Assembly: GCF_044647545.1 (NCBI RefSeq)
Contig: NZ_CP172818.1
Direction: 5' to 3' (one strand)
Length of the DNA: 64,000 nucleotides
From: Escherichia coli
Lineage (GTDB): Bacteria > Pseudomonadota > Gammaproteobacteria > Enterobacterales > Enterobacteriaceae
Shown here in pieces: positions 1,872-51,045 of this stretch. The position numbers and the translations under genes were made by a program. How positions within the stretch are numbered: the stretch's first letter is position 1; every line of letters starts with the position of its first letter. The notes beneath the pieces are model-generated. The model worked only from the letters and a program-made list of their open reading frames with translations, ran no database searches and was not told where the DNA came from.

Positions 1872-1875
1872 GTTA

Positions 1876-2117: not shown

Positions 2118-2133
2118 ACGAAAACGATTGCTT
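2118..2133 (+). promoter_or_regulatory. PurR-box-like operator upstream of codB
   Basis: acgaaaacgattgctt resembles the PurR operator consensus (aCGcAAaCGtTTtCnT); position fits the codBA promoter. Recollection-based. Confidence 0.4.
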
Positions 2134-2199
2134 TTTATCTTCAGATGAATAGAATGCGGCGGATTTTTTGGGTTTCAAACAGCAAAAAGGGGGAATTTC

Positions 2200-3455
2200 G
2201 TGTCGCAAGATAACAACTTTAGCCAGGGGCCAGTCCCGCAGTCGGCGCGGAAAGGGGTATTGGCATTGACGTTCGTCATGCTGGGATTAACCTTCTTTTC
2301 CGCCAGTATGTGGACCGGCGGCACTCTGGAACCGGTCTTAGCTATCATCAATTCTTTCCTCGCAGTTCTCATCGGTAATCTTCTCCTCGGTATTTACACT
2401 TGATTTCTCGGTTACATTGGCGCAAACCGGCCTGACCACTCATCTTCTTGCTCGCTTCTGGTTTGGTGTTAAAGGCTCATGGCTGCCTTCACTGCTACTG
2501 GGCGGAACTCAGGTTGGCTGGTTTGGCGTCGGTGTGGCGATGTTTGCCATTTCGGTGGGTAAGGCAACCGGGCTGGATATTAATTTGCTGATTGCCGTTT
2601 CCGGTTTACTGATGACCGTCACCGTCTTTTTTGGCATTTGGCGCTGACGGTTCTTTCGGTGATTGCGGTTCCGGCTATCGCCTGCCTGGGCGGTTATTCC
2701 GTGTGGCTGGCTGTTAACGGCATGGGCGGCCTGGACGCATTAAAAGCGGTCGTTCCCGCACAACCGTTAATTTCAATCTCGCGCTGGCGCTGGTTGTGGT
2801 CATTTTCTGGTGGGTACGCTCGCCGCTGGCGCCTTTTGTCCGGTTTGGTCGCAATGCCAAACTGGCGGTGCTGGTGGCGATGGTGGCCTTTTTCCTCGGC
2901 AACTGGTTGATGTTTATTTTCGGTGCAGCGGGCGCTGCGGCACTGCGCATGGCGGATATCTCTGATGTGATGATTGCTCAGGGCCTGCTGCTGCCTGCGA
3001 TTGTGGTGCTGGGGCTGAATATCTGGACCACCAACGATAACGCACTCTATGCGTCGGGTTTAGGTTTCGCCAACATTACCGGGATGTCGAGCAAAACCCT
3101 TTCGGTAATCAACGGTATTATCGGTACGGTCTGCGCATTATGGCTGTATAACAATTTTGTCGGCTGGTTGACCTTCCTTTCGGCAGCTATTCCTCCAGTG
3201 GGTGGCGTGATCATCGCCGACTATCTGATGAACCGTCGCCGCTATGAGCACTTTGCGACCACGCGTATGATGAGTGTCAATTGGGTGGCGATTCTGGCGG
3301 TCGCCTTGGGGATTGCTGCAGGCCACTGGTTACCGGGAATTGTTCCGGTCAACGCGGTATTAGGTGGCGCGCTGAGCTATCTGATCCTTAACCCGATTTT
3401 GAATCGTAAAACGACAGCAGCAATGACGCATGTGGAGGCTAACAGTGTCGAATAA
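2200..3455 (+). pseudogene. codB: cytosine permease, frame-disrupted
   Basis: GTG start at 2200 with upstream SD; N-terminus MSQDNNFSQGPVPQSARKG. Gene is split into four ORF fragments (2200-2403, 2417-2647, 2638-2910, 2796-3455): premature TGA 2401-2403 and frame changes near 2404-2430, ~2636 and ~2770. Confidence 0.8.
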
Positions 3456-4728
3456 CGCTTTACAAACAATTATTAACGCCCGGTTACCAGGCGAAGAGGG
3501 GCTGTGGCAGATTCATCTGCAGGACGGAAAAATCAGCGCCATTGATGCGCAATCCGGCGTGATGCCCATAACTGAAAACAGCCTGGATGCCGAACAAGGT
3601 TTAGTTATACCGCCGTTTGTGGAGCCACATATTCACCTGGACACCACGCAAACCGCCGGACAACCGAACTGGAATCAGTCCGGCACGCTGTTTGAAGGCA
3701 TTGAACGCTGGGCCGAGCGCAAAGCGTTATTAACCCATGACGATGTGAAACAACGCGCATGGCAAACGCTGAAATGGCAGATTGCCAACGGCATTCAGCA
3801 TGTGCGTACCCATGTCGATGTTTCGGATGCAACGCTAACTGCGCTGAAAGCAATGCTGGAAGTGAAGCAGGAAGTCGCGCCGTGGATTGATCTGCAAATC
3901 GTCGCCTTCCCTCAGGAAGGGATTTTGTCGTATCCCAACGGTGAAGCGTTGCTGGAAGAGGCGTTACGCTTAGGGGCAGATGTAGTGGGGGCGATTCCGC
4001 ATTTTGAATTTACCCGTGAATACGGCGTGGAGTCGCTGCATAAAACCTTCGCCCTGGCGCAAAAATACGACCGTCTCATCGACGTTCACTGTGATGAGAT
4101 CGATGACGAGCAGTCGCGCTTTGTCGAAACCGTTGCTGCCCTGGCGCACCATGAAGGCATGGGCGCGCGAGTCACCGCCAGCCACACCACGGCAATGCAC
4201 TCCTATAACGGGGCGTATACCTCACGCCTGTTCCGCTTGCTGAAAATGTCCGGTATTAACTTTGTCGCCAACCCGCTGGTCAATATTCATCTGCAAGGAC
4301 GTTTCGATACGTATCCAAAACGTCGCGGCATCACGCGCGTTAAAGAGATGCTGGAGTCCGGCATTAACGTCTGCTTTGGTCACGATGATGTCTTCGATCC
4401 GTGGTATCCGCTGGGAACGGCGAATATGCTGCAAGTGCTGCATATGGGGCTGCATGTTTGCCAGTTGATGGGCTACGGGCAGATTAACGATGGCCTGAAT
4501 TTAATCACCCACCACAGCGCAAGGACGTTGAATTTGCAGGATTACGGCATTGCCGCCGGAAACAGCGCCAACCTGATTATCCTGCCGGCTGAAAATGGGT
4601 TTGATGCGCTGCGCCGTCAGGTTCCGGTACGTTATTCGGTACGTGGCGGCAAGGTGATTGCCAGCACACAACCGGCACAAACCACCGTATATCTGGAGCA
4701 GCCAGAAGCCATCGATTACAAACGTTGA
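3445..4728 (+). CDS. codA: cytosine deaminase
   Basis: GTG start at 3445 ([14 protein letters not shown]...), 427 aa, 11-bp overlap with codB end; amidohydrolase motifs (HIHLD). Confidence 0.9.
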
Positions 4729-4750
4729 ACGACTGGGTTACAGCGAGCTT

Positions 4751-5150
4751 AGTTTATGCCGGATGCGGCGTGAACGCCTTATCCGGCCTACGTAGAGCAC
4801 TGAACTCGTAGGCCTGATAAGCGTAGCGCATCAGGCAATTCCAGCCGCTGATCTGTGTCAGCGGCTACCGTGATTCATTCCCGCCAACAACCGCGCATTC
4901 CTCCAACGCCATGTGCAAAAATGCCTTCGCAGCGGCTGTCTGCCAGCTGTAGTTTATGCCGGATGCGGCGTGAACGCCTTATCCGGCCTACGTAGAGCAC
5001 TGAACTCGTAGGCCTGATAAGCGTAGCGCATCAGGCAATTCCAGCCGCAGACCTGTGTCAGCGGCTACCGTGATTCATTTCCGCCAACAACCGCGCATTT
5101 ATCCAACGCCATGTGCAAAAATGCCTTCGCGGCGGCTGTCTGCCAGCTAT
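4751..5150. repeat. 200-bp direct tandem duplication (two copies, ~96% identical) containing REP-like palindrome and the 3' end of cynR
   Basis: Copy 1 at 4751-4950 and copy 2 at 4951-5150 align base-for-base with ~7 mismatches; copy 2 overlaps the last ~86 bp of cynR. Confidence 0.8.
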
Positions 5151-5964
5151 TTTTCCGCCGCAACAAAACCGCCGTTCTCTCCAGTAGTGGCGGGGCAAGA
5201 GAAATAGCTTTAAGCCCGTCATGTTGTGTGGCAATCGCTGCTGGTAACAATGTGGAAAGGGAAGTGCGGCGAATCAGCTCCAGAACCGCGCTAATTGAGT
5301 TCGCCTCAATGACCACCTGTGGATGTAGCCCCGCTTTCTCGCAGTAGTGGTCAATTTGCTCTCTGGTGGCAAATTCCGCGCTGAGCAGGACCAGTTTTTC
5401 ATCATGCAAGCGACTCAACGCCACCTGTTCATGGACGGCCAGCGGATGATGTTGCGCCACGACTAACGCTAAACTTTCTGTCAGTAAAGGAATTGCCTCC
5501 AGCTCCGGCGAATGCACAGGCGCGAAGGCAATCCCAACGTCCAACTCGTCGCGGCAAAGCATATCCTCGATTTTCTCCTGCGACATTTCCTGTAGCTGGA
5601 GCGTGATGCTGGGATAGCGCGCATAGAAATCCGCCATTAAGGGGCCGATAAAGTAGCTCGTAAAGGTGGGGGTGACGGCGATACGCAGCGATCCTCGCGT
5701 CAGATCGGCAACATCATGAATCGCCCGTTTACCCGCCCCCAGTTCCTGTAACGCCCGGCTGGCGTACTGTCGCCAGACTTCTCCTGCATCAGTGAGACGA
5801 ATCGTTCGCCCGCTACGGTCAAACAGCGGCACGCCTAAACTCTCCTCTAACTGGCGAATCTGCTGGGAAAGCGCAGGTTGGGAGACGTGCAACGCACTGG
5901 CGGCACGGGTGAAGCTGCCATGTTCAGCCACGGCAAGAAAATAATTGATATGTCGAGAGAGCAT
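5065..5964 (-). CDS. cynR: LysR-type transcriptional regulator of the cyn operon
   Basis: 299-aa ORF starting [40 protein letters not shown] (LysR HTH), divergent from cynT. Confidence 0.9.
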
Positions 5965-6072
5965 TCGCAACCTATAAGTAAATCCAATGGAACTCATCAT
6001 AAATGAGACTTTTACCTTATGACAATCGGCGAGTAGTCTGCCTCTCATTCCAGAGACAGACAGAGGTTAACG

Positions 6073-6732
6073 GTGAAAGAGATTATTGATGGATTCCTTA
6101 AATTCCAGCGCGAGGCATTTCCGAAGCGGGAAGCCTTGTTTAAACAGCTGGCGACACAGCAAAGCCCGCGCACACTTTTTATCTCCTGCTCCGACAGCCG
6201 TCTGGTCCCTGAGCTGGTGACGCAACGTGAGCCTGGCGATCTGTTCGTTATTCGCAACGCGGGCAATATCGTCCCTTCCTACGGGCCGGAACCCGGTGGC
6301 GTTTCTGCTTCGGTGGAGTATGCCGTCGCTGCGCTTCGGGTATCTGACATTGTGATTTGTGGTCATTCCAACTGTGGCGCGATGACCGCCATTGCCAGCT
6401 GTCAGTGCATGGACCATATGCCTGCCGTCTCCCACTGGCTGCGTTATGCCGATTCAGCCCGCGTCGTTAATGAGGCGCGCCCGCATTCCGATTTACCGTC
6501 AAAAGCTGCGGCGATGGTACGTGAAAACGTCATTGCTCAGTTGGCTAATTTGCAAACTCATCCATCGGTGCGCCTGGCGCTCGAAGAGGGGCGGATCGCC
6601 CTGCACGGCTGGGTCTACGACATTGAAAGCGGCAGCATCGCAGCTTTTGACGGCGCAACCCGCCAGTTTGTGCCACTGGCCGCTAATCCTCGCGTTTGTG
6701 CCATACCGCTACGCCAACCGACCGCAGCGTAA
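6073..6732 (+). CDS. cynT: carbonic anhydrase (beta class)
   Basis: 219-aa ORF, GTG start; beta-carbonic-anhydrase motifs (CSDSR, HSNCG). Confidence 0.9.
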
Positions 6733-6744
6733 CCTTATTTTTAA

Positions 6745-7233
<489 letters not shown>

Positions 7234-7265
7234 CAGCCATGCGCAACCATCAAAAGACGTTCACG

Positions 7266-8420
7266 ATGCTGCTGGTACTGGTGCTGATTGGTCTTAATAT
7301 GCGACCACTGCTCACCTCCGTCGGGCCACTGCTACCGCAATTGCGCCAGGCGAGCGGAATGAGCTTTAGCGTGGCTGCCCTGTTGACCGCTCTGCCGGTG
7401 GTTACCATGGGCGGGCTGGCGCTGGCCGGAAGCTGGCTTCATCAGCATGTCAGCGAACGTCGCAGTGTCGCCATCAGTCTGTTGCTGATTGCCGTCGGTG
7501 CATTGATGCGTGAGCTTTACCCGCAAAGTGCGCTGCTGCTTAGCAGCGCACTGCTTGGTGGGGTGGGGATCGGCATCATTCAGGCGGTGATGCCTTCGGT
7601 GATTAAACGGCGGTTTCAGCAGCGCACGCCACTGGTGATGGGGCTGTGGTCCGCGGCTCTGATGGGCGGCGGTGGGCTTGGTGCCGCCATAACGCCCTGG
7701 TTAGTTCAACATAGCGAAACCTGGTATCAAACACTCGCCTGGTGGGCGCTGCCTGCCGTTGTTGCGCTCTTTGCCTGGTGGTGGCAAAGCGCCCGCGAGG
7801 TCGCCTCTTCCCACAAGACAACAACCACTCCGGTTCGCGTGGTATTCACTCCCCGCGCGTGGACGCTGGGTGTTTACTTCGGTCTGATTAACGGCGGTTA
7901 CGCCAGCCTGATTGCCTGGTTACCCGCTTTCTATATTGAGATTGGTGCCAGCGCGCAGTACAGCGGTTCCTTACTGGCATTGATGACGCTTGGGCAAGCC
8001 GCAGGAGCTTTGCTGATGCCTGCTATGGCTCGCCATCAGGATCGGCGCAAACTGTTAATGCTGGCGCTGGTGTTACAACTGGTGGGGTTCTGCGGCTTTA
8101 TCTGGCTGCCGATGCAATTGCCGGTATTGTGGGCGATGGTGTGTGGGTTAGGTCTGGGCGGCGCGTTTCCGCTCTGTTTGCTGCTGGCGCTCGATCACTC
8201 TGTGCAACCGGCTATTGCTGGCAAGCTGGTGGCGTTTATGCAGGGAATCGGTTTTATCATCGCCGGGCTTGCCCCGTGGTTTTCTGGCGTGCTGCGTAGT
8301 ATCAGCGGCAATTACCTGATGGACTGGGCATTTCATGCGCTGTGCGTCGTTGGGCTGATGATCATAACCCTGCGTTTTGCACCAGTACGTTTTCCGCAGC
8401 TGTGGGTCAAAGAGGCATGA
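7266..8420 (+). CDS. cynX: MFS cyanate transporter
   Basis: Hydrophobic multi-TM ORF; 384 aa from ATG 7266 (an upstream in-frame ATG at 7239 would give 393 aa). Confidence 0.85.
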   Translation: MLLVLVLIGLNMRPLLTSVGPLLPQLRQASGMSFSVAALLTALPVVTMGGLALAGSWLHQHVSERRSVAISLLLIAVGALMRELYPQSALLLSSALLGGVGIGIIQAVMPSVIKRRFQQRTPLVMGLWSAALMGGGGLGAAITPWLVQHSETWYQTLAWWALPAVVALFAWWWQSAREVASSHKTTTTPVRVVFTPRAWTLGVYFGLINGGYASLIAWLPAFYIEIGASAQYSGSLLALMTLGQAAGALLMPAMARHQDRRKLLMLALVLQLVGFCGFIWLPMQLPVLWAMVCGLGLGGAFPLCLLLALDHSVQPAIAGKLVAFMQGIGFIIAGLAPWFSGVLRSISGNYLMDWAFHALCVVGLMIITLRFAPVRFPQLWVKEA

Positions 8421-8520
8421 TGCGACGCTTGTTCCTGCGCTTTGTTCATGCCGGATGCGGCTAATGTAGATCGCTGAACTTGTAGGCCTGATAAGCGCAG
8501 CGTATCAGGCAATTTTTATA
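8421..8520. repeat. REP-like palindromic element between cynX and lacA
   Basis: GCCGGATGCGGC / GCCTGATAAGCGCAGCG palindromic units. Confidence 0.5.
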
Positions 8521-8522
8521 AT

Positions 8523-9134
8523 TTAAACTGACGATTCAACTTTATAATCTTTGAAATAATAGTGCTTATCCCGGTCGTTTATTTCGCGAATAACCCGACA
8601 AGGAACGCCAGCCGCCACGACGTTTGGTGGAATGTCTTTTGTGACGATACTACCCGCGCCAATAACAGAATTATCCCCGATGGTGACGCCTGGATTAATA
8701 ACCACATGACTTCCGATCCAGACGTTATTGCCAATCGTTATCGGAAAAGAGTACATCTCGCCGTTTTTTCTCAATTCATGGTGTACAGGGTGTCCCGTAA
8801 CGGAAAGAGTAACGTTGGGTGCAATCAGTACGTTATCACCGATTGTTACCGTGTAGTCATCGACAATGGTTAAATTGAAATTTGCATAAAAATTGCGGCC
8901 TATATGGATGTTGGAACCGTAAGAGAAATAGACAGGCGGTTCTACCCAGGCGTTTTCCCCTACCGTGGCAAACATTTCTTTAATCAGGCTTTCTCTTTTT
9001 TCAACTTCTGATGGATGCGAGTGATTAAACTCATACATTAACGTTTTCCCACGAAGTCTTTTTTCCGGTAAGCCTTCGCACATATCGGTAAATAGCTTGC
9101 CTGCTCTTATTCTTTCGGTCATTGGCATGTTCAA
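8523..9134 (-). CDS. lacA: galactoside O-acetyltransferase
   Basis: 203-aa hexapeptide-repeat acetyltransferase; start is TTG (complement at 9132-9134) giving LNMPMTER, consistent with the known unusual lacA start. Confidence 0.9.
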   Translation of the reverse strand: MNMPMTERIRAGKLFTDMCEGLPEKRLRGKTLMYEFNHSHPSEVEKRESLIKEMFATVGENAWVEPPVYFSYGSNIHIGRNFYANFNLTIVDDYTVTIGDNVLIAPNVTLSVTGHPVHHELRKNGEMYSFPITIGNNVWIGSHVVINPGVTIGDNSVIGAGSIVTKDIPPNVVAAGVPCRVIREINDRDKHYYFKDYKVESSV

Positions 9135-9199
9135 TGCGATCACTCCGTTATGATATGTTGGTCGGATAAGGCGCTCGCGCCGCATCCGACATTGATTGC

Positions 9200-10498
<1,299 letters not shown>

Positions 10499-24199: not shown

Positions 24200-24340
24200 G
24201 CAGCACCCACACCAGCCAGCAAGAGCGGATAAGGCGTCCGCCCACCGGCAGCGTGCATCCTGATGACGCTTTGCATCTATCATCCTAGTTTCCAGAAATA
24301 GGATAAGGCGTTCACGCCGCATCCGGCAGTCGTGCACTAT
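24200..24340. repeat. REP-like palindromic elements between yaiL and frmB
   Basis: GGATAAGGCGTTCACGCCGCATCCGGCAG-type units. Confidence 0.5.
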
Positions 24341-27646: not shown

Positions 27647-28203
27647 TTAATCTCCTGTACGGATAAGTTCTTGTCGGAGTGAATAAGTTCCGGTAGGTAA
27701 ATTACGTTCTACAATCACGCGCGGGCCAAGTTGCGTGTTCGGGGAAATAATTCGCCCAGGCAAAATAATAACTTGTACGCCAAGGCGTGAACGCTGTCCG
27801 ATATAACAACCTAATTTATCGCATCCGGTAGCGATAATTCCCTCTGGAGTTCGAACAGACACGGGCTGTTCATCCAGACGATGATTACTGGTACGTACTT
27901 GTGCGCCCAAATATGCCTGGTTTGCGACTACCGAGTCGGCAATAAAACATTGCGGACCAATCGTTGCTTCCGCTTCAATAACCGCATTTTTAATTTCGGT
28001 GGCGAAACCAATTTTTACGCCATTGCTGATTATTGTGCCAGGACGAATAAACGAAATTACCTATCAGGCAGTTTGCGCCAATCACTACCGGACCCTGAAT
28101 AACGGCACCGTGACAAATACGGGTATTCGCGCCGATAACAACTTCACCTGCAGTTTCATCAATAATTACCTGGTCTGCAATCTGAATATTTTTCTCTTTA
28201 ACA
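27647..28203 (-). pseudogene. yaiX: hexapeptide-repeat acyltransferase, frameshifted
   Basis: Hexapeptide repeats (VIGANTRICHGAVIQGPVVIGANCLIGN) continue in another frame (IRPGTIISNGVKIGFA...) with the switch near 28040-28060; no IS element at the break. Confidence 0.7.
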
Positions 28204-29400
28204 TTAAGCTTCAGAAAGTTTTTCAGTTCCTGTGACAGAAGGTTGGGAATAAGCGGTTGACGCTTCCACCAGTGCGGAATAGCGGGTGGGTTTGTCGCGC
28301 TGAGGTTCGCGTCCAGTAAAAAAGGCAATAAGTCCATAAATAATCCAGATGGCATAAGCTAATAATACATACACAACGGAAAGCGGCGCTAAAGGCACCA
28401 ACAACCAGCAACGATGAAACCAGGCGCTAAAAGCACCAATAACACAAACTACGCCGACCCAGATAAGCGGAAACATTGCCAACACCACACCATGCGGCCC
28501 GGTGGTGATGAATTCATTAAACCAGGTAGTGAGATAAATCCCAACGCCATAAAGCACAACCAACAGCATAGGAAATATACTGAAGATACCGAAGCGGCTA
28601 AATAAAAGTCTTTTATGCAGGCGCATACAGACCGCGTAGCCCACAATCCAACGCCGCCAGCGACGCCATTCCTCACGCGGGCTGTTGCATTCCTGTGGGT
28701 ATACGATGCAGCGATTCGCCTGCCGAATACGATAGCCGTTTGCCACCAATGTCCAGGTGAGATCAAGGTCTTCGACTTTAGTACGATCAGAGAAACCGAA
28801 CTTACGCAATACATCAGTACGGAACATCCCGCAGGCACCGCTGATAATAAACGGTGCGCCGCCCAGGAGCTGCTGTAGCGTGCGCTTCATAACAATCATC
28901 GGCAACTTTACGGTCGCGCGGATGTGCGGTAACAGCCCCGCGCCTTTCAACGCAGTAGAGGGAATGCCGCCTACGGCATCAGCACCGCGCTCAATTTCTG
29001 CCAGCATATAGCCCATTCCGTCTTGATCGGGCGGAACATAGGTGTCGGCATCACTTAAAAAAACCTGGTCGCAGGTGGCGTAATTGAGGCCATTCATCAG
29101 CGCACCACCTTTACCGGTATTTTTTTGCGTGACGGCAACAAAGCGGTCGCCCCATTTGCGTTTGACTTCCGCCATGACCGCTTCGGTATTGTCCGTGGAG
29201 CCGTCGTTAACGCAAATTACCCGGCAAAAATAAGGGTTACGCAGCAGATTATCCAGTGACTGCGCCAGACACGGGCCTTCGTTATAAGCAGGTATAATGG
29301 CGTCAATACAGCCTTTTTTTTGGCTGGGCTTACGCCTTAACGTACTCAGGAACCATAGCAATATTGCTACGGCCATACAGATAAATATCCAGGTTTTCAT
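28204..29400 (-). CDS. yaiP: membrane glycosyltransferase, family 2
   Basis: 398-aa ORF with N-terminal TM, GT-A signatures (CVNDGSTDNT, SDADTYV) and C-terminal TM helices. Confidence 0.85.
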   Translation of the reverse strand: MKTWIFICMAVAILLWFLSTLRRKPSQKKGCIDAIIPAYNEGPCLAQSLDNLLRNPYFCRVICVNDGSTDNTEAVMAEVKRKWGDRFVAVTQKNTGKGGALMNGLNYATCDQVFLSDADTYVPPDQDGMGYMLAEIERGADAVGGIPSTALKGAGLLPHIRATVKLPMIVMKRTLQQLLGGAPFIISGACGMFRTDVLRKFGFSDRTKVEDLDLTWTLVANGYRIRQANRCIVYPQECNSPREEWRRWRRWIVGYAVCMRLHKRLLFSRFGIFSIFPMLLVVLYGVGIYLTTWFNEFITTGPHGVVLAMFPLIWVGVVCVIGAFSAWFHRCWLLVPLAPLSVVYVLLAYAIWIIYGLIAFFTGREPQRDKPTRYSALVEASTAYSQPSVTGTEKLSEA

Positions 29401-30081: not shown

Positions 30082-30696
30082 TTAATGACACTCCATTTTA
30101 TTTATTATACTACAAGCACAACGATGCACTCAGAGACGTAATCTCTGGCGCAGCCAGATGCTAATTTATAAGTGTTAAATGTTGCTAATAATTGAAAAGC
30201 CAGGGCTTTCAGATCCGGGGGGGCGACTGGTTAATGTTTTTATGCAATTCATATGTTAAGTGTTTGTATGTTTGGTATGTATAGTTATTTTGTTTTATAC
30301 ATTGTATTTAGATGTGATTTAGTTTGTCAATTAATTGCATTTAAAAAATATGTTCTGTGAACAAGTATTGTTTATATACATTATGTGAATGTAATATGCG
30401 AGTGATTGAGAATGATACAGTGATATATATAATGCGAATATAATAGTTTTATTATATGTATTGATATTGATAGAAATAATGAAGTAATAAATCTCGTAAT
30501 GTGGTTGTTTATGCATCACTAAAATGAAGTGTAGTAATTTTCCCAATTGTTAGAACGGAGTAATTGCATATTTAATCTTTCCTTTGCCGTTTTTTTGCTA
30601 AGAATAAAATCATCTGTGCGATAACGACTAATTCTTTTAATGAATGTTTTTATTCCTGAATACTGCTCCCATAACAAGACAGGGGAGCAGACAATC

Positions 30697-31659
30697 ATGG
30701 CAATTTCATCGCGTAACACACTTCTTGCCGCACTGGCATTCATCGCTTTTCAGGCACAGGCGGTGAACGTCACCGTGGCGTATCAAACCTCAGCCGAACC
30801 GGCGAAAGTGGCTCAGGCCGACAACACCTTTGCTAAAGAAAGCGGAGCAACCGTGGACTGGCGTAAGTTTGACAGCGGAGCCAGCATCGTGCGGGCGCTG
30901 GCTTCAGGCGACGTGCAAATCGGCAACCTCGGTTCCAGCCCGTTAGCGGTTGCAACCAGCCAACAGGTGCCGATTGAAGTCTTCTTGCTGGCGTCAAAAC
31001 TGGGTAACTCCGAAGCGCTGGTGGTAAAGAAAACTATCAGTAAACCGGAAGACTTGATTGGTAAACGCATCGCCGTACCGTTTATCTCCACCACCCACTA
31101 CAGCCTGCTGGCGGCGCTGAAACACTGGGGTATTAAACCCGGGCAAGTGGAGATTGTGAACCTGCAGCCGCCCGCGATTATCGCCGCATGGCAGCGGGGA
31201 GACATTGATGGTGCTTATGTCTGGGCACCGGCGGTTAACGCCATGGAAAAAGATGGCAAGGTGCTGACCGATTCTGAACAGGTCGGGCAGTGGGGCGCGC
31301 CGACACTGGACGTCTGGGTCGTGCGGAAAGATTTTGCCGAGAAACATCCAGAGGTCGTGAAAGCGTTCGCCAAAAGCGCCATCGATGCTCAGCAACCGTA
31401 CATTGCTAACCCAGACGTGTGGCTGAAACAGCCGGAAAACATCAGCAAACTGGCGCGTTTAAGCGGCGTGCCTGAAGGTGACGTTCCGGGGCTGGTGAAG
31501 GGGAATACCTATCTGACGCAGCAGCAACAAACGGCAGAACTGACCGGACCGGTGAATAAAGCGATCATCGATACCGCGCAGTTTTTGAAAGATCAGGGCA
31601 AAGTCCCTGCCGTGGCGAATGATTACAGCCAGTACGTGACCTCGCGCTTCGTGCAATAA
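30697..31659 (+). CDS. tauA: taurine ABC transporter periplasmic binding protein
   Basis: 320 aa from ATG 30697 with signal peptide (MAISSRNTLLAALAFIAFQAQA). Confidence 0.9.
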   Translation: MAISSRNTLLAALAFIAFQAQAVNVTVAYQTSAEPAKVAQADNTFAKESGATVDWRKFDSGASIVRALASGDVQIGNLGSSPLAVATSQQVPIEVFLLASKLGNSEALVVKKTISKPEDLIGKRIAVPFISTTHYSLLAALKHWGIKPGQVEIVNLQPPAIIAAWQRGDIDGAYVWAPAVNAMEKDGKVLTDSEQVGQWGAPTLDVWVVRKDFAEKHPEVVKAFAKSAIDAQQPYIANPDVWLKQPENISKLARLSGVPEGDVPGLVKGNTYLTQQQQTAELTGPVNKAIIDTAQFLKDQGKVPAVANDYSQYVTSRFVQ

Positions 31660-31671
31660 AAGGAGGCGCAG

Positions 31672-32439
31672 ATGCTGCAAATCTCTCATCTTTACGCCGA
31701 TTATGGCGGCAAACCGGCACTGGAAGATATCAACCTGACGCTGGAAAGCGGCGAGCTTCTGGTAGTTCTGGGGCCGTCTGGCTGCGGCAAAACTACGTTG
31801 CTGAATTTGATTGCCGGTTTTGTGCCTTATCAGCATGGCAGCATTCAACTGGCGGGTAAGGGTATTCAGGGACCGGGGGCAGAGCGTGGCGTAGTTTTTC
31901 AGAATGAAGGGCTACTACCGTGGCGCAATGTACAGGACAACGTGGCATTCGGCCTGCAACTGGCAGGCGTAGAGAAAATGCAGCGACTGGAAATCGCGCA
32001 CCAGATGCTGAAAAAAGTCGGCCTGGAAGGGGCGGAAAAACGCTATATCTGGCAGCTTTCCGGCGGTCAACGTCAGCGGGTAGGGATTGCCCGCGCGCTG
32101 GCGGCGAATCCCCAGCTGTTATTACTCGACGAACCGTTTGGCGCGCTGGACGCCTTCACCCGCGATCAGATGCAAACCCTGCTGCTGAAACTCTGGCAGG
32201 AGACGGGCAAGCAGGTGCTGTTGATTACCCACGATATAGAAGAAGCGGTGTTTATGGCGACTGAACTGGTTCTGCTTTCATCCGGCCCTGGCCGCGTGCT
32301 GGAGCGGCTGCCGCTCAACTTTGCTCGCCGCTTTGTTGCCGGGGAACCGAGCCGCAGCATCAAGTCCGATCCACAATTCATCGCCATGCGCGAATATGTT
32401 TTAAGCCGCGTATTTGAGCAACGGGAGGCATTCTCATGA
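31672..32439 (+). CDS. tauB: taurine ABC transporter ATP-binding protein
   Basis: 255 aa; Walker [13 protein letters not shown] signature LSGGQRQR, Walker B LLLLDEP. Confidence 0.95.
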
Positions 32440-33263
32440 GTGTGCTCATTAATGAAAAACTGCATTCGCATCGGCTGAAATGGCGCTGGCCGCTCTCGCG
32501 TCAGGTGACCTTAAGCATTGGCACGTTAGCGGTTTTACTCACTGTATGGTGGGCGGTGGCGGCGCTGCAACTGATTAGCCCGCTGTTTTTGCCGCCACCG
32601 CAACAGGTCCTGGCAAAACTGCTCACCATTGCCGGACCGCAGGGATTTATGGACGCCACGCTGTGGCAGCATCTGGCAGCCAGCCTGACGCGCATTTTGC
32701 TGGCGCTACTCGCGGCGGTGTTGATCGGTATTCCGGTCGGGATCGCCATGGGGCTAAGCCCGACGGTGCGCGGCATTCTGGATCCGATAATCGAGCTTTA
32801 TCGTCCGGTGCCGCCGCTGGCTTATTTGCCGCTGATGGTGATCTGGTTTGGTATTGGCGAAACCTCGAAGATCTTACTGATCTATTTAGCGATTTTTGCA
32901 CCGGTGGCGATGTCGGCGCTGGCGGGGGTGAAAAGCGCGCAGCAGGTTCGCATTCGTGCCGCCCAGTCGCTGGGTGCCAGTCGTGCGCAGGTGCTGTGGT
33001 TTGTCATTTTGCCCGGCGCGCTGCCGGAAATCCTCACCGGATTACGCATTGGTCTGGGTGTGGGCTGGTCTACGCTGGTAGCGGCGGAGCTGATTGCCGC
33101 GACGCGCGGTTTAGGATTTATGGTTCAGTCAGCGGGTGAATTTCTCGCGACTGACGTGGTGCTGGCGGGGATCGCGGTGATTGCGATTATCGCTTTTCTT
33201 TTAGAACTGGGTTTGCGCGCGTTACAGCGCCGCCTGACGCCCTGGCATGGAGAAGTACAATGA
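32436..33263 (+). CDS. tauC: taurine ABC transporter permease
   Basis: 275-aa multi-TM ORF overlapping tauB by 4 bp. Confidence 0.9.
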
Positions 33264-34111
33264 GTGAACGTCTGAGCATTACCCCGCTGGGGCCGTATAT
33301 TGGCGCACAAATTTCGGGTGCCGACCTGACGCGCCCGTTAAGCGATAATCAGTTTGAACAGCTTTACCATGCGGTGCTGCGCCATCAGGTGGTGTTTCTG
33401 CGCGATCAAGCTATTACGCCGCAGCAGCAACGCGCGCTGGCCCAACGTTTTGGCGAACTGCATATTCATCCTGTTTACCCTCATGCCGAAGGGGTTGACG
33501 AGATCATCGTCCTGGATACTCATAACGATAATCCGCCGGATAACGACAACTGGCATACCGATGTGACATTTATTGAAACGCCACCCGCAGGGGCGATTCT
33601 GGCGGCAAAAGAGTTACCCTCGACCGGCGGCGATACGCTCTGGACCAGCGGTATTGCGGCCTATGAGGCGCTCTCTGTTCCCTTCCGCCAGCTGCTGAGC
33701 GGGTTGCGTGCGGAGCATGATTTCCGTAAATCGTTCCCGGAATACAAATACCGCAAAACCGAGGAGGAGCATCAACGCTGGCGCGAGGCGGTCGCGAAAA
33801 ATCCGCCGTTGCTACATCCGGTGGTGCGAACGCATCCGGTGAGCGGTAAACAGGCGCTGTTTGTGAATGAAGGCTTTACCACGCGAATTGTTGATGTCAG
33901 CGAGAAAGAGAGCGAAGCCTTGTTAGGTTTTTTGTTTGCCCATATCACCAAACCGGAGTTTCAGGTGCGCTGGAGCTGGCAACCGAATGATATTGCGATT
34001 TGGGATAACCGTGTGACTCAGCACTATGCCAATGCGGATTACCTGCCACAGCGGCGGATTATGCATCGGGCGACGATTCTTGGGGATATTCCGTTTTATC
34101 GGGCGGGGTAA
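33260..34111 (+). CDS. tauD: taurine dioxygenase (alpha-ketoglutarate dependent)
   Basis: 283-aa ORF, 4-bp overlap with tauC; HxD...H iron-binding residues (WHTDVTF). Confidence 0.9.
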
Positions 34112-34135
34112 ACGGATAACCCGGCATAATGATCA

Positions 34136-35110
34136 TTAACGCAGAATCTTCTTCTCAGCCAAATCCAGCGCAAAGTAGCTGAAAATCAGATCCGCACCCG
34201 CACGCTTAATTGAACCTAAGCTTTCGAGCACGACTTTCTCTTCATCTATAGCACCCGCCAGCGCGGCGAACTTAATCATCGCGTACTCACCGCTCACCTG
34301 ATACGCGCCAATCGACAATTCAGTACGTTCACGCAGCTCACGCACGATGTCGAGGTACGCTCCAGCAGGTTTAACCATCAGGCAGTCTGCGCCCTGGGCT
34401 TCATCCAGCAGTGACTCACGAATCGCCTCACGACGGTTCATTGGGTTCATCTGATAGCTTTTGCGGTCGCCTTTTAATGCGCTTCCGGCAGCTTCACGGA
34501 ACGGGCCATAAAAGGAGGAGGCGAACTTGGTCGAATACGACATAATCGCCGTATCTTTAAAGCCCGCAGCGTCCAGCGCCTGGCGAATCGCTTGTACCTG
34601 GCCATCCATTGCGGCGGAAGGGGCGATGAAGTCTGCACCTGCAGCAGCTGCAACCACGGCCTGCTTGCCTAAATTTTCCAGGGTCGCGTCGTTGTCGACG
34701 CCATGCTCGCACAGCACACCGCAGTGACCGTGAGAAGTGTATTCACAGAAACAGGTGTCTGACATGACGATCATTTCTGGCACGGTCTGCTTGCAGATGC
34801 GCGACATACGCGCCACCAGACCATCTTCCCGCCAGGCATCGCTGCCGGTTTCATCGGTATGGTGAGAGATGCCGAAAGTCATCACGGAACGAATACCGGC
34901 GTTGGCGATGCGTTCAATTTCGCGTGCCAGATGTTTCTCTGGAATGCGCATCACGCCTGGCATGGCTTCAACGGCTTTGTAGTCGTCAATTTCTTCTTCA
35001 ACAAAGATCGGCAACACCAGGTCGTTAAGGCTAAGTGTTGTCTCTTCAAACATAGCGCGCAGCGCAGGAGATTTGCGCAGGCGACGAGGGCGTTGGATTA
35101 AGTCTGTCAT
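34136..35110 (-). CDS. hemB: porphobilinogen synthase (delta-aminolevulinate dehydratase)
   Basis: 324 aa from [24 protein letters not shown]...; active-site lysine region ([10 protein letters not shown]). Confidence 0.9.
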
Positions 35111-37124
35111 GGTCTGCCTGATGTTTGTGGAATCGAGGGGCATAGTATACCTGAAGCAGGGTGGGGATGTTTTACGAAAGTTGTCGCGATGTTGACAAGA
35201 AGAGAATGAATGAGAGGCCAGGACATCTTTGTAATAGAAATAGCAATAATTTCATATTCACTGAAAATATTTTTAATTTTTATTTATAGTCATGGATTAT
35301 TGTTTTTGGGGATTTGGTTGCGTTATCAAAAACGGAATGATTTAAAGTTCATTGGTTATTGATAGATTATTTGTCTGGTTTGTGTGTTTGATATTTTAAA
35401 TGCATATGCTTTAAAAATGGAAATCCTGTTAACTTGTTGAAACATTAAGCCTTTATCAATTTTTTCTTTGTGTGTTCCTCCGTGCTTTATATATGTCCGT
35501 AACCGGACTTCGGGGAAAGAATAATTGAACCATTCCTCAATAACGCCGCATAATCGTTAGCGCGAAACATAATATGTTTTCTATGCATTGATAATTGATG
35601 GATCAACTTATTACGTCCCTGAGGAGGGATGACAAATGCACTCCTGGAAAAAGAAACTTGTAGTATCACAATTAGCATTGGCTTGCACTCTGGCTATCAC
35701 CTCTCAGGCTAATGCAGCGACCTACTGATACCTGGACTTATATCGATAATCCCGTTACAGCACTTGATTGGGATCATATGGATAAGGCAGGCACTGTAGA
35801 TGGCAACTATGTAAACTATAGTGGTTTTGTCTATTACAACAACACCAATGGTGATTTCGATCAGTCCTTTAACGGCGATACCGTTAACGGCACGATCTCA
35901 ACCTATTATTTGAACCATGATTATGCAGACAGTACTGCTAATCAGCTTGATATCAGTAATTCAGTGATTCACGGTTCGATTACTTCTATGCTGCCTGGCG
36001 GTTATTATGATCGTTTTGATGCAGATGGTAATAATCTGGGTGGATATGATTTTTACACTGATGCGGTTGTTGATACACACTGGCGTGATGGTGATGTTTT
36101 CACTTTGAACATTGCTAACACTACTATTGATGATGATTATGAAGCTCTTTACTTCACTGATTCTTATAAAGATGGTGATGTAACCAAGCACACAAATGAG
36201 ACATTTGATACAAGTGAAGGCGTTGCTGTTAATCTTGATGTAGAAAGTAACATCAATATTTCCAATAACTCCCGCGTTGCAGGTATTGCATTATCTCAAG
36301 GTAATACTTACAACGAAACCTACACTACCGAATCTCATACTTGGGATAACAATATCTCTGTAAAAGATTCCACAGTGACTTCGGGTTCAAATTATATCCT
36401 GGATAGCAATACTTATGGCAAAACTGGTCACTTTGGCAATTCTGATGAACCGAGTGATTATGCTGGCCCGGGTGATGTTGCAATGTCCTTTACTGCTTCA
36501 GGTTCCGACTATGCGATGAAGAACAATGTATTCCTCAGCAATTCAACGCTGATGGGTGATGTTGCCTTTACCAGCACCTGGAATAGTAATTTTGATCCGA
36601 ATGGTCATGATTCCAACGGTGACGGGGTGAAAGATACCAACGGGGGTTGGACTGATGATAGCCTCAACGTTGATGAACTAAATCTCACTCTCGATAACGG
36701 AAGCAAGTGGGTTGGTCAGGCAATTTATAACGTTGCTGAAACGTCAGCAATGTATGATGTTGCTACAAACAGCCTTACTCCTGATGCAACATATGAAAAC
36801 AATGACTGGAAACGTGTTGTTGATGACAAGGTCTTCCAGAGCGGTGTATTTAACGTAGCGTTGAATAACGGTTCTGAATGGGATACTACAGGTCGTTCCA
36901 TCGTTGATACCTTGACAGTTAATAATGGTTCTCAGGTTAATGTTTCGGAATCTAAATTAACTTCAGATACTATCGATTTAACTAACGGTTCTTCGCTGAA
37001 CATTGGTGAAGATGGCTACGTTGATACCGATCATCTGACTATTAACTCCTACAGTACTGTTGCGTTGACCGAATCTACTGGGTGGGGGGCTGATTGATCC
37101 TACCCACGTAATATGGACACAGGC

Positions 37125-37991
37125 CTAAGCGAGGTTCTTGTTTTCAAATTGTTCCGGACTGAGGCCGCCACACCAACTGTGCCGCCGCCACCGATTGTAA
37201 TCACATTCGATATAATTAAACACCGTTGCCCGCATTATTTCCCGGCTGATAAAGTGTTCTCCATGGATACATTCCACTTTCAGCGAATGAAAGAAGCTTT
37301 CCACGCAGGCATTATCGTAGCAGCAACCTTTTGCGCTCATACTTCCACGCAGATTATGCCGCTTCAGTTGCGCCTGATAATCTGCTGAACAGTACTGGCC
37401 TCCACGGTCCGTGTGAACGATAACGTTCCGGGGCCTCTTACGCCGCCACAGCGCCATCTGCAGGGCATCGCAGGCCAGTTGCGCCGTCATGCGTGGCGAC
37501 ATTGACCAGCCAATAACGGCACGTGACCACAGGTCAATGACCACTGCCAGATACAGCCAGCCTTCATCTGTACGTAAGTACGTGATGTCTCCTGCCCACT
37601 TCTGGTTCGGGCCACTGGCGTAAAAATCCTGCTCCAACAGATTTTCTGACACAGGCAGGCCGTGTGCGCGGTAGCTGACCGGGCTGAACTTCCGGGAGGC
37701 CTTTGCCCTCAGTCCCTGACGGCGCAGGCTTGCCGCCACGGTTTTTACGTTAAAGGGGTAACCCTGAGCACGCAGTTCATCCGTCAGGCGTGGGGCACCG
37801 TAACGCTGTTTTGACCGGGTAAAAGCCGCGAGGACAACGCTGTCGCAGTGTTGGCGGAACTGCTGACGCGTGCTTATCCTTGTCCGCCGCTGACACCACG
37901 TATACCAGCCGCTGCGGGCCACCCGGAGCACGCGGCACATTGCTTTGATGCTGAACTCAGCCTGATGTTTTTCAATAAAGACATACTTCAT
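37125..37991 (-). CDS. insF: IS3 transposase OrfB (DDE integrase domain), expressed with OrfA by -1 frameshifting
   Basis: 288-aa ORF overlapping insE by 4 bp (ATGA); DDE/integrase-like translation. Confidence 0.9.
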
Positions 37992-38296
37992 TTCAGGCGC
38001 TTCGCGAAGTATGTCGCGGCCTTTTGGAGGATAGCCAGCTCTTCATCCCGTTCTGCCAGCTGGCGTTTGAGACGTGCAATCTCGGTAGACATCTCCAGTT
38101 CACGTTCAGAAGACGTCTGCTGATTTTGCTGTTTACTGCGCCAGTTGTAGAGTTGTGATTCATACAGGCTGAGTTCACGGGCTGCGGCAGTAACACCGAT
38201 GCGTTCAGCAAGCTTCAGGGCTTCACTGCGAAATTCAGGCGAATGCTGTTTACGGGGTTTTTTACTGGTTGATACTGTTTTTGTCATGTGAGTCAC
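37988..38296 (-). CDS. insE: IS3 transposase OrfA (HTH)
   Basis: 102-aa [58 protein letters not shown]... Confidence 0.9.
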
Positions 38297-39166
38297 CTCT
38301 GACTGAGAGTTTACTCACTTAGCCGCGTGTCCACTATTGCTGGGTAAGATCAGATTACAACCTGTACGCCAATACTATCACCGTAACTAACGGCGGTGTA
38401 TTGGATGTGAACGTTGATCAGTTCGATACTGAAGCTTTCCGTACTGACAAACTGGAACTGACCAGCGGCAACATCGCTGACCATAACGGTAACGTAGTAT
38501 CTGGTGTGTTCAATATCGAAAGCAACCGCTTCGTACTTGATGCCGACCTGACCAACGACCGTACCAACGATACTACCAAGTCAAACTACGGTTATGGTTT
38601 AATCGCAATGAACTCTGATGGTCACCTGACCATTAACGGTAACGGCGATAACGACAACACTGCTTCTATCGAAGCTGGTCAGAACGAAGTTGATAACAAC
38701 GGTGACCATGTTGCAGCTGCAACCGGTAACTACAAAGTTCGTATCGACAACGCTACTGGTGCTGGTTCTATCGCTGACTACAACGGCAACGAGCTGATCT
38801 ACGTTAACGACAAAAACAGCAACGCGACCTTCTCTGCTGCTAACAAAGCTGACCTGGGTGCATACACCTATCAGGCTGAACAGCGCGGTAACACCGTTGT
38901 TCTGCAACAGATGGAGCTGACCGACTACGCTAACATGGCGCTGAGCATCCCGTCTGCGAACACCAATATCTGGAACCTGGAACAAGACACCGTTGGTACT
39001 CGTCTGACCAACTCTCGTCATGGCCTGGCTGATAACGGCGGCGCATGGGTAAGCTACTTCGGTGGTAACTTCAACGGCGACAATGGCACCATCAACTATG
39101 ATCAGGATGTTAACGGCATCATGGTCGGTGTTGATACCAAAATTGACGGTAACAACGCTAAGTGGA

Positions 39167-44993: not shown

Positions 44994-45206
44994 ATGAACT
45001 TGCCTGTAAAAATCCGCCGTGACTGGCACTACTATGCGTTCGCCATTGGCCTTATATTCATTCTTAATGGCGTGGTGGGGTTACTGGGATTTGAAGCAAA
45101 AGGTTGGCAGACCTATGCCGTCGGTCTGGTGACGTGGGTGATTAGTTTCTGGCTGGCGGGGTTGATTATTCGTCGTCGCGATGAAGAAACTGAAAACGCC
45201 CAATAA
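44994..45206 (+). CDS. yaiZ: small membrane protein (DUF2754)
   Basis: 70 aa from MNLPVKIRRDWHYYAFAIGLIFILNGVVGLLGF... Confidence 0.7.
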   Translation: MNLPVKIRRDWHYYAFAIGLIFILNGVVGLLGFEAKGWQTYAVGLVTWVISFWLAGLIIRRRDEETENAQ

Positions 45207-45229
45207 GAATATTACTGGGCGTTTGAATA

Positions 45230-46324
45230 TTACATTGTGGTTTTCAGTGCGTTATCTGCAGCGTGACGCTCCAGCGCCAGCTCAATCAAACGCGTGATCA
45301 GGTCGGTGTAACCCAGACCGCTGGCTTGCCACAACTTCGGATACATACTGATGTTGGTGAAGCCAGGCAGGGTGTTGATCTCGTTGATCACCACTTCGTT
45401 CTCTGGGGTTAAAAACACGTCTACACGCGCCATGCCTGCGCATCCCAACGTTTGATAGGCCTGAACGGCAATCGCCCGGATCTTATCGTTGATTTCTGGC
45501 GCAATGGCTGCCGGAACAACCACTTTCGCGCCATCTTCGTCAATGTACTTGGTGTCGTAGGCATAAAAATCGCTGGTTAGTACGATCTCGCCACAGGTGC
45601 TGGCTTGCGGATTGTCGTTGCCCAGAACTGCGCATTCGATCTCACGACCTTTGATCCCTTGCTCAACGATCACTTTATGGTCGAACTCGAACGCCAGATC
45701 GACGGCAATTGCGTACTGTTCTTCACTGGTTACTTTGCTGACACCAACAGAAGAGCCCTGATTAGCCGGTTTTACAAACAGCGGTAACCCCAGTTTAGAC
45801 TCCACTTCGGCAAAACTGATGTTGTGACGATTAGCGCGCGTCAGGGTAATAAATGGCGCAATGTTCAGCCCGGCATCGCGCAGCAGACGTTTGGTGACAT
45901 CTTTATCCATACAGGCCGCTGAAGCCAGAACATCAGAACCTACAAACGGTAAATTGGCGACCCGCAGCATTCCCTGCAAGGAACCATCTTCGCCCAGCGT
46001 ACCGTGGACAATCGGGAAAATGACATCCACCGTCGGCAACGGCTGACCGTTTTGCGCGTCGATAAGCTGATGTTCATGTTTACCAGGCACCTGCGCAAGG
46101 CTGGTCGCCGAAGGGCGCAACGCAATATGGGCAGGATCGTCTGCATTTAGCAGATAATTGCTGGCATCGCTGACGTGCCATTGCCCTTGTTTATCAATGC
46201 CCAGCAGCACAACGTCGAAGCGACTTTTATCAATGGCATCGACAATGTTTTTTGCCGATTGCAGAGACACTTCATGTTCCGCTGATTTACCACCAAAAAC
46301 GATTCCTACCCGCAGTTTTTCCAT
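45230..46324 (-). CDS. ddlA: D-alanine--D-alanine ligase A
   Basis: 364-aa ATP-grasp ligase ([27 protein letters not shown]...). Confidence 0.95.
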
Positions 46325-49103: not shown

Positions 49104-50219
49104 ATGTTCCCAAAAATAATGAATGATGAAAACTTTTTCAAAAAAGCGGCGGCGCATGGGGAGGAACCTCCTTTAACTCCTCAAAACGAACATCAGCGAT
49201 CCGGGCTGCGCTTCGCCCGTCGCGTCAGACTACCCCGCGCGGTTGGCCTGGCTGGCATGTTCTTACCGATTGCTTCAACGCTGGTTTCGCACCCGCCGCC
49301 GGGCTGGTGGTGGCTGGTGTTGGTCGGCTGGGCGTTCGTCTGGCCGCATTTAGCCTGGCAGATAGCGAGCAGGGCCGTCGATCCGCTTAGCCGGGAAATT
49401 TACAACTTAAAAACCGATGCAGTATTAGCGGGAATGTGGGTAGGCGTAATGGGCGTAAACGTGCTGCCTTCCACCGCGATGTTGATGATTATGTGTCTGA
49501 ATTTGATGGGGGCAGGCGGCCCCCGTCTGTTTGTCGCGGGTCTGGTGTTGATGGTGGTTTCCTGCCTTGTCACCCTCGAACTGACGGGCATCACCGTGTC
49601 GTTCAATAGTGCGCCGCTGGAATGGTGGCTCTCCCTTCCCATTATCGTCATTTATCCTCTGCTGTTTGGCTGGGTCAGCTACCAGACGGCGACTAAACTG
49701 GCGGAACATAAACGCAGGTTGCAGGTCATGAGTACCCGCGACGGTATGACGGGCGTGTATAACCGACGTCATTGGGAAACTATGTTACGCAATGAATTTG
49801 ATAACTGTCGGCGGCATAACCGCGATGCGACATTACTGATTATCGATATCGACCATTTCAAGAGCATCAACGATACCTGGGGCCATGATGTGGGCGATGA
49901 AGCGATTGTGGCGCTTACCCGACAGTTACAAATAACCCTGCGCGGTAGCGATGTGATTGGTCGGTTTGGCGGCGATGAGTTTGCGGTAATCATGTCCGGT
50001 ACGCCAGCTGAGAGCGCCATTACCGCCATGTTACGAGTGCATGAAGGGCTAAATACATTACGTCTGCCGAATACGCCACAGGTAACTTTACGGATTAGTG
50101 TGGGGGTTGCGCCGCTGAACCCACAAATGAGTCACTATCGTGAGTGGTTGAAATCGGCAGATTTGGCGCTTTACAAAGCAAAGAAAGCCGGACGTAACCG
50201 CACCGAAGTGGCGGCCTGA
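49104..50219 (+). CDS. dgcC: diguanylate cyclase (GGDEF domain) with N-terminal membrane domain
   Basis: 371-aa ORF with RFGGDEFAV motif and N-terminal TM segments. Confidence 0.9.
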   Translation: MFPKIMNDENFFKKAAAHGEEPPLTPQNEHQRSGLRFARRVRLPRAVGLAGMFLPIASTLVSHPPPGWWWLVLVGWAFVWPHLAWQIASRAVDPLSREIYNLKTDAVLAGMWVGVMGVNVLPSTAMLMIMCLNLMGAGGPRLFVAGLVLMVVSCLVTLELTGITVSFNSAPLEWWLSLPIIVIYPLLFGWVSYQTATKLAEHKRRLQVMSTRDGMTGVYNRRHWETMLRNEFDNCRRHNRDATLLIIDIDHFKSINDTWGHDVGDEAIVALTRQLQITLRGSDVIGRFGGDEFAVIMSGTPAESAITAMLRVHEGLNTLRLPNTPQVTLRISVGVAPLNPQMSHYREWLKSADLALYKAKKAGRNRTEVAA

Positions 50220-50235
50220 CGTCCGGCAAAAGTCA

Positions 50236-51045
50236 TCAGGATTTACTGAGTTTTTCTGATTTTTCCATACACTTCGTCATCGCTTCGATCACTGCGGCAC
50301 GGAAGCCTTTCTCTTCCAGTACGCGTACCGCCTCAATGGTGGTGCCTCCCGGTGAGCAGACCATATCTTTCAGTGCCCCTGGATGTTCTCCCGTTTCCAG
50401 CACCATTTTTGCGGAACCCATTACCGCCTGAGCGGCAAATTTATACGCCTGGGCGCGTGGCATCCCGCCCAGCACGGCGGCGTCGGCCATCGCTTCGATA
50501 AACATAAAGACGTAGGCTGGCGAAGAACCGCTCACACCGACCACCGGGTGGATCATCGGCTCGGCAATTACTTCCGCTTCGCCAAAGCAGCGGAAAATAT
50601 TCAGCACATCAGCGGTATCTTCTGGGGTTACCAGCGCGTTTGGCGTTACGGAGGTCATCCCGGCATTAACCAGCGCGGGAGTGTTCGGCATGGCGCGGAT
50701 AATTTTCCGGTCATGGCCCAGCGCGCGGGCAAGCTGGTCGAGTGTGATACCTGCAGCAATAGAAACGACCAGAGAGTCTTTATTCAGGCTGGAGGTGATT
50801 TCGCTAAGCACTTTAATCATGATGCCAGGTTTAACGGCGGCAAAAATGATGTCGGCGATTTGCGCCACTTCTTGCGCCGATTCTGCGGCGTTGATGCCGA
50901 ACTGGTCATGCAGGGCGGCGACTTTATCCGGGGAGGGGGTATATACCCAGATTTGCCCTGGAAGCACCTGACCGCTGGCAATCAGACCGCCGAGAATGGC
51001 TTTTCCCATATTGCCGCAGCCAATAAAACCGATTTTCTTTTCCAT
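50236..51045 (-). CDS. proC: pyrroline-5-carboxylate reductase
   Basis: 269 aa from [21 protein letters not shown] (Rossmann fold). Confidence 0.9.

Follow-up and report, generated by a model that had tools for sequence, protein, structure and literature searches.

A conserved hairpin between the convergent genes tauD and hemB of Escherichia coli lacks one arm in a single genome record, most likely through a sequence defect

Convergent genes in Escherichia coli can be separated by bidirectional terminators, which are described as unlike intrinsic terminators and as not Rho-dependent (Ju et al. 2019, in the summary given by 10.1101/2022.10.23.513370). According to the same summary, the hairpin that such elements encode is needed to bring converging polymerases together at a defined position (10.1101/2022.10.23.513370). 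REP elements have been proposed as dual regulators of the 3' untranslated region (3'UTR), being both partial terminators and stabilisers of mRNA (Harris et al., 10.64898/2026.03.23.713779), and a REP between convergent genes correlates with higher expression of both (10.64898/2026.03.23.713779). Here we analyse the junction at which tauD, the final gene of the tauABCD operon, converges with hemB in a 64,000-nt stretch of the E. coli contig NZ_CP172818.1 (NCBI RefSeq assembly GCF_044647545.1; hereafter the window). Close relatives carry a symmetric hairpin at this junction, and one of its two arms is missing here. In K-12, the same junction has been listed as a member of the HPG1 G-quadruplex/hairpin repeat (PMC5100583).

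In the window, tauD (taurine dioxygenase) occupies 33260-34111 on the + strand and ends in a TAA codon at 34109-34111, and hemB (porphobilinogen synthase) occupies 34136-35110 on the - strand, its TAA stop being the reverse complement of 34136-34138. Both genes were assigned from their open reading frames (ORFs) and Pfam: the tauD product of 283 amino acids matches the TauD family with an E value of 1.8e-74, and the hemB product of 324 amino acids matches ALAD with an E value of 1.9e-135. The hemB ORF extends to an ATG at 35143; the equivalent of the RefSeq start, taken from the annotation of an identical sequence, is 35110. The spacer between the two stop codons is 24 nt long, ACGGATAACCCGGCATAATGATCA (34112-34135), so that the names, coordinates and length given in the original prediction, which described tauD and hemB as converging with 24 nt between their stops, are all correct. 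The space between the 3' ends of a convergent gene pair is also the location at which bidirectional terminators are found.

Comparison with close relatives reveals what this spacer has lost. In these genomes the spacer is 39 nt long, GGGGGAAATGCCGGGTTGGATAACCCGGCATAATGATCA, and contains a perfect 10-bp stem, ATGCCGGGTT-GGAT-AACCCGGCAT, with a folding energy of -16.2 kcal/mol on either strand. The hairpin is symmetric and GC-rich, and it stands directly after both stop codons. We compared the whole window base by base with the genome FDAARGOS_497, whose annotated tauD shows no difference from the tauD of the window. At 34112-34113, immediately beyond the tauD stop, the dinucleotide AC replaces 17 nt of the relatives, GGGGGAAATGCCGGGTT, a net loss of 15 nt, and the replaced bases include the left arm of the hairpin. 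The right arm, AACCCGGCAT, is left as an orphan at 34118-34127. The spacer of 24 nt is thus a truncated version of the one carried by its own lineage (ST648/FDAARGOS_497), and it is private to this sequence. This bears out one of the options raised by the original prediction, namely that an element found in other strains has been lost.

All sampled spacers of 39 or 40 nt keep the stem intact, and with it both the GC-rich stem-loop and its encoding on both strands. The sampled 39-nt variants differ outside the stem only (GGGAG for GGGGG, GAACA for GATCA). In Escherichia whittamii the spacer is 40 nt long and the innermost pair has changed from T-A to A-T on both sides, with one base added to the loop, a compensatory change by which the stem is kept. 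Perfect stems of at least 9 bp with small loops occur only four times in the whole window, and about 2e-4 perfect stems of 10 bp are expected by chance in any one 39-nt spacer. Taken together, the sequence comparison indicates that the tauD-hemB hairpin is a conserved element and that the form in the window is derived from it. For kilobases on both sides of the junction the window is identical to genomes that carry the hairpin, and it therefore cannot represent an older lineage. The spacer region also holds a perfect 12-nt palindrome, TAATGATCATTA (34127-34138), which encloses a GATC site, overlaps the hemB stop and is present in the 39-nt spacer as well; about 16 such palindromes are expected by chance per 64 kb.

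The comparison of the spacer across E. coli that the original prediction had proposed was made on 5,426 complete genomes, and the 24-nt form occurs in none of them. A 331-nt query across the junction reached a best identity of 95.7%, the entire shortfall being the 15-nt gap, and the same gap is responsible for the 80-90% identity of all 1,280 full-length matches to a 106-nt junction query. When the search was extended to the 4.7 kb at 30500-35200, 84 genomes, among them ST648 strains, FDAARGOS_497 and ECONIH1, matched at 99.7%, with the 15-nt gap as the sole difference. The 39-nt spacer was found in 1,819 of the 5,426 genomes, and most of the remaining genomes, where read, have spacers of 106-157 nt with a G-rich repeat. 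Annotated examples measure 39 nt in FDAARGOS_497, 106 nt in K-12 MG1655 and O157 Sakai, and 157 nt in Z1323CEC0004. Among the outgroups, which were E. whittamii, Escherichia sp. E1V33 and Citrobacter (E. albertii, E. fergusonii and E. marmotae were not returned by the scan), E1V33 has a spacer of 203 nt, and Citrobacter species with convergent tauD and hemB have REP-like or other palindromes in the spacer.

Metagenomes and protein-level matches gave the same picture. The exact 24-nt junction string had no match among metagenome contigs. As a positive control for this search, the same flanks with any insert of 0-30 nt between them recovered 45 contigs, 43 of them with the 39-nt and two with the 40-nt spacer, and none with 24 nt. 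Thousands of assemblies are indexed with the identical TauD protein; among the matches listed, the spacer was 39 nt in four of four (for 36 contigs). Two records met in these searches carry labels that do not agree with their junctions: in a metagenome-assembled genome labelled Citrobacter sp. HRGM_Genome_0066, the 293 nt read match the 39-nt tauD-hemB junction of E. coli without a change, and a record labelled Chryseobacterium sp. 18061 has a Citrobacter-type junction. Both are probably mis-binned or contaminated.

Compared with the described systems, the 39-nt spacer of the relatives resembles the bidirectional terminators of Ju 2019 and of Wang, Watters, Ju and Liu, as these are summarised, in that it lies between convergent genes, encodes a hairpin on both strands and has no U-tract. 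By analogy, the intact spacer may be a member of this class. The window differs from it, since one arm is lost and the hairpin is no longer encoded on either strand. With intrinsic (Rho-independent) terminators, the relatives share a GC-rich stem-loop placed right after the stop codons; however, no form of the spacer has a U-tract on either strand. The 39-nt spacer instead has the tails AAUGAUCAUU and UUCCCCCUUA, and the window, which has lost the stem as well, has the tail GGCAUAAUGA. A simple terminator scan calls nothing at the 39-nt spacer of FDAARGOS_497, nor at the 106-nt spacer of K-12.

REP elements are likewise intergenic palindromes at the 3' ends of genes, and their presence or absence from strain to strain has been proposed to tune expression. 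By inspection, however, the tauD-hemB stem (GCCGGGTT) differs from the REP sequence (GCCGGATG...), and the hairpin as a whole, GCCGGGTT-GGAT-AACCCGGC, is unlike the REPs present in this window (GCCGGATGCGGCG...). A 79-nt query, which included unique hemB sequence, found one place per genome. The HPG1 repeat occupies the same junction in K-12-type strains and is unrelated in sequence to the 39-nt hairpin spacer. Its G-rich motif stands at this junction in K-12, Sakai and Z1323CEC0004, with a variant form in Escherichia sp. E1V33, and no copy of the GGGGAGAGGGTTAGGGTGAGGGG-type motif, whether HPG1 or BoxC-like, was found anywhere in the window with up to three mismatches allowed. We presume a likeness between the HPG1 repeat and the BoxC family, without equating the two. 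BoxC is a known repeat of E. coli (PMC2267715). The members of the long spacer class (106 nt in K-12, 157 nt in Z1323CEC0004, 203 nt in E1V33) appear to differ by one to two copies of a unit of about 51 nt, ACGAG.GTGGACGGTC.CCTCG.GCGGCGAAAGAACGGTGATATAGATGA, located upstream of the G-rich HPG1/BoxC-like repeat.

We then asked what the truncated spacer itself can still form. A scan for a hairpin followed by a T-run on both strands of 33200-35400 called nothing near the junction; its two sites elsewhere in this interval compare with 2.9 expected in shuffled sequence. The scan took in both coding 3' ends, where the original prediction had allowed that a terminator might lie, and found none within either. 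In and around the 24-nt spacer there is no compact GC-rich stem-loop and no U-rich tract following a stem. Rfam returned no match at E <= 1 for 33000-35600, nor for three variants of the spacer. The original prediction had stated that no hairpin separates the two genes. This holds for a compact hairpin or a T-run but is incomplete, as an imperfect fold spans the tauD stop on the + strand (34083-34122), partly created by the truncation junction and without a U-tract after it. Its core is a 7-bp pairing of TCCGTTT (34090-34096) with AAACGGA (34110-34116) around a 13-nt loop. On the + strand it folds with -13.5 to -15.6 kcal/mol; the - strand gives a weaker fold of about -11 kcal/mol. As a source of the AAACGGA arm, a template switch copying TCCGTTTTA of tauD was considered and rejected: it would yield TAAAACGGA, with one A too many.

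Energy alone did not discriminate between hairpins in this region. A single hairpin at least as stable as -13.5 kcal/mol was present in 48% of random 124-nt segments of the window, and -16.2 kcal/mol was reached by 27% of them. Folds of 151 nt were no more stable than shuffles on either strand (z = +0.63 and -0.38). We relied instead on perfection of the stem, symmetry on both strands and conservation. The imperfect fold at 34083-34122 is no better than chance and is not evidence of function, because 48% of random segments match its energy.

Set against the other convergent pairs of the same window, the short spacer is ordinary in itself. Spacers taken from the annotation of the identical reference measure 0 nt for iprA/ampH, 16 nt for adrA/proC and 23 nt for yaiZ/ddlA. 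What is unusual at tauD-hemB is the absent compact hairpin and not the spacing, because each of the five further convergent junctions tested has retained a compact hairpin, able to form on both strands and often straddling the stop codons. Hairpins overlapping stop codons were seen at iprA/ampH (around 40531), yaiZ/ddlA (45206-45230; AAACGCCCA...UGGGCGUUU) and adrA/proC (50219-50236; GCCGGACGU...ACGUCCGGC), with energies of -14 to -27 kcal/mol overall and of -23.5/-26.7 kcal/mol for adrA/proC.

The truncation is accompanied by further changes private to this record. Between 9302 and 35722, the window has no substitution relative to FDAARGOS_497 and differs from it at four places only, one of them the tauD-hemB spacer, and the 25.5 kb at 38501-64000 are 100% identical, which gives zero substitutions over 52 kb in total. 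At 22211, five nucleotides (GCGGC) are lost inside a REP between mhpE and mhpT; this form occurs in 0 of the 5,426 genomes, the best match being 94.8% with the gap as the shortfall. At the convergent yaiL/fghA junction (24203-24310), a REP cluster is rearranged: 56 additional nucleotides, among them a REP copy missing some five single bases, stand ahead of nine micro-deletions in the resident REPs. The flanks of the cluster are 100% identical to FDAARGOS_497, and the form of the spacer matches none of the 5,426 genomes. At 28054-28055, two single nucleotides separated by one base are deleted (CGCATAA to CGAAA), which shifts the frame of an acetyltransferase gene between yaiO and yaiP and splits its ORF into 27647-27910 and 27990-28355. 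Outside this region, 27 substitutions and 14 small indels, the latter mostly deletions, separate prpE and codB (55-2946) from EC931, the closest genome. Both reading frames are broken, and the best identity of this stretch among the 5,426 genomes is 99.1%. The next 5.5 kb, from codA to cynX, have only two sites that differ from EC931. Positions 1-2950 look like sequence of poor local quality or a pseudogene tract of an unusual kind. As the source of the prpE sequence, a mixture of two strains, one FDAARGOS_497-like and the other EC931-like, was considered and rejected, as comparison by eye showed differences from both references at the positions inspected.

The window is also mosaic in ancestry. 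Positions 1-9301 are closest to EC931-type genomes and 1-4% distant from FDAARGOS_497, and the sequence to the right of 9301 is identical to the FDAARGOS_497/ST648 group. Within the latter part, the segment of the autotransporter gene (ehaB/yaiT) at 35730-38500 is a different allele, 2,771 nt long as against 1,603 nt in FDAARGOS_497, and the best 12-kb matches around it (97.6%) are genomes annotated with an IS3-family transposase near this gene. Between codA and cynR lies a tandem duplication of about 200 nt (4743-4948 and 4942-5148), whose copies are 96% identical; the duplication occurs in EC931 too, and a portion of it carries the annotation of a partial hypothetical gene in that genome.

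A sequencing or assembly artefact seems to us the most likely origin of the truncation, because the changes are deletion-only, clustered at inverted repeats and in three reading frames, in a sequence otherwise identical to its relatives. Zero substitutions beside more than a dozen micro-deletions, located at inverted repeats and not at homopolymers, are unlike mutation and descent and like a locally poor consensus. In nanopore reads, base calls are reportedly missed because of inverted repeats (PMC7229812). Several points weigh against this interpretation. The report in question concerns long inverted duplications, not 10-bp stems (PMC7229812). The absence of homopolymer errors from the 52 kb identical to FDAARGOS_497 speaks against a long-read assembly of poor quality throughout, and any error process would have had to be local. 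The loss of 15 of 17 consecutive bases exceeds typical consensus error. As to the element itself, the hairpin has no U-tract and is not called by a simple terminator scan, and its role in termination or RNA stability at tauD-hemB is suggested by analogy. A real and very recent private deletion is, in our view, the next most likely origin. It would leave no defined transcript stop in the spacer, so that hemB transcripts and, under sulfur starvation, tauABCD transcripts would run antisense into the partner gene, where Rho would terminate on untranslated C-rich RNA or polymerases would collide at variable positions, leaving heterogeneous 3' ends and less protected mRNAs. The sequence as given, which has no compact hairpin, agrees with this account, as do the untouched coding sequences of tauD and hemB and the composition of the read-through RNAs (C/G of 1.6-2.3 for tauD and 1.4-1.6 for hemB). 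Also in its favour, removal of the terminator element from a convergent template in vitro led to varied collision sites and heterogeneous RNA lengths (10.1101/2022.10.23.513370). Nevertheless, the 24-nt form is absent from all 5,426 genomes, all 45 metagenome contigs and the listed assemblies with identical TauD; the change, with AC left behind, is not a clean deletion between microhomologies; and the loss co-occurs with deletion-only private changes that no single natural process explains, with zero substitutions in 52 kb.

The remaining explanations accept the short spacer as functional or original, and we regard all of them as improbable. The imperfect fold could have replaced the lost hairpin as a terminator or RNA-stabilising structure, given that its AAACGGA arm is present in the truncated form only, pairs with tauD codons at 34090-34096 and reaches -13.5 to -15.6 kcal/mol on the + strand. 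This is very unlikely: almost half of random segments match the fold, no U-tract follows it, about 0.07 stems of 7 bp around a 13-nt loop are expected here by chance, its 5' arm lies within translated tauD codons, and its dependence on G-U pairs makes it weaker on the - strand, the strand of the hemB RNA. It is harder still to believe that a short, hairpin-free spacer is the normal state of E. coli, with read-through as a built-in interference between sulfur-starvation and heme genes. Such a view could point to the K-12 (106 nt) and 39-nt spacers, where no canonical hairpin plus T-run is called either, but in all the other sequences examined the spacer is longer and carries either the 10-bp hairpin or a structured repeat. 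Equally implausible is an ancestral 24-nt form into which the hairpin was inserted in other lineages; nothing but the simplicity of the form favours it, and it conflicts both with the sharing of the hairpin spacer by E. coli and E. whittamii, compensatory change included, and with the identity of the window to hairpin-bearing genomes for kilobases on each side.

The function proposed for the intact hairpin is suggested by its likeness to bidirectional terminators. It would mark the 3' ends that hemB and tauABCD transcripts have in common, serving as a point of pausing or termination and as a barrier to 3' exonucleases. Such a function would also be in keeping with the double role, in termination and stabilisation, that has been put forward for REP palindromes (10.64898/2026.03.23.713779). 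Published transcript ends gave no further hold on the junction: the supplements of TERMITe have no entry for hemB or tauD, no SEnd-seq or Term-seq data for it were found, and a full-text literature search for tauD, hemB and terminator returned only the G-quadruplex paper (PMC5100583). If the sequence is an artefact, as we consider most likely, the organism would have the normal hairpin and nothing unusual would happen at this junction.

If the deletion is real, the composition of the flanking RNA suggests a backstop. Beyond the tauD stop, the untranslated read-through RNA, antisense to the 3' end of hemB, contains a C-rich, G-poor candidate Rho loading region on the + strand (34125-34358), with a C/G ratio of 1.6-2.3 in 78-nt windows along some 250 nt; most of these values reach or exceed 1.72, the 95th percentile of the whole window. 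The first 100 nt or so of the hemB read-through RNA, antisense to the 3' end of tauD (34032-34135, - strand), are moderately C-rich, at 1.4-1.6 or about the 90th percentile of the background. Untranslated, C-rich, G-poor and weakly structured RNA past a stop codon is a property of Rho-dependent terminators, and composition is the only such property found here. Rho acting on the C-rich antisense RNA would then be a probable backstop. The tauABCD operon is expressed only under sulfate starvation, and hemB is constitutive; head-on collisions would thus be rare in ordinary growth. The main effect of a real deletion would be ragged, less protected hemB 3' ends together with some antisense tauD RNA.

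Overall, the original prediction is partly supported, and an artefact was not among its three readings. The other two, read-through or interference, would apply only to a loss that took place in the cell, which is doubtful. Convergent genes with a bidirectional hairpin between them form a well-known class that includes this junction, and the lack of the hairpin is confined to one record. Little biological weight attaches to it as such, since what is missing is one arm of a conserved hairpin of a known kind, probably through a sequence defect. Comparison with relatives turns an apparent regulatory oddity into a probable defect of the sequence, and it flags the other micro-deletions and frameshifts of the record; an absent terminator called from a single sequence needs comparison with close relatives first. 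Should the 15-nt loss nonetheless be real, which we hold only as a tentative possibility, the strain would be a natural knockout of a conserved bidirectional hairpin between the essential gene hemB and the starvation operon tauABCD. It would then offer a small and convenient isogenic comparison with ST648 strains, which have the same sequence for kilobases to the left and right, and could be used to test in vivo whether hairpins of this kind determine where polymerases collide, block antisense read-through and shield both mRNAs.

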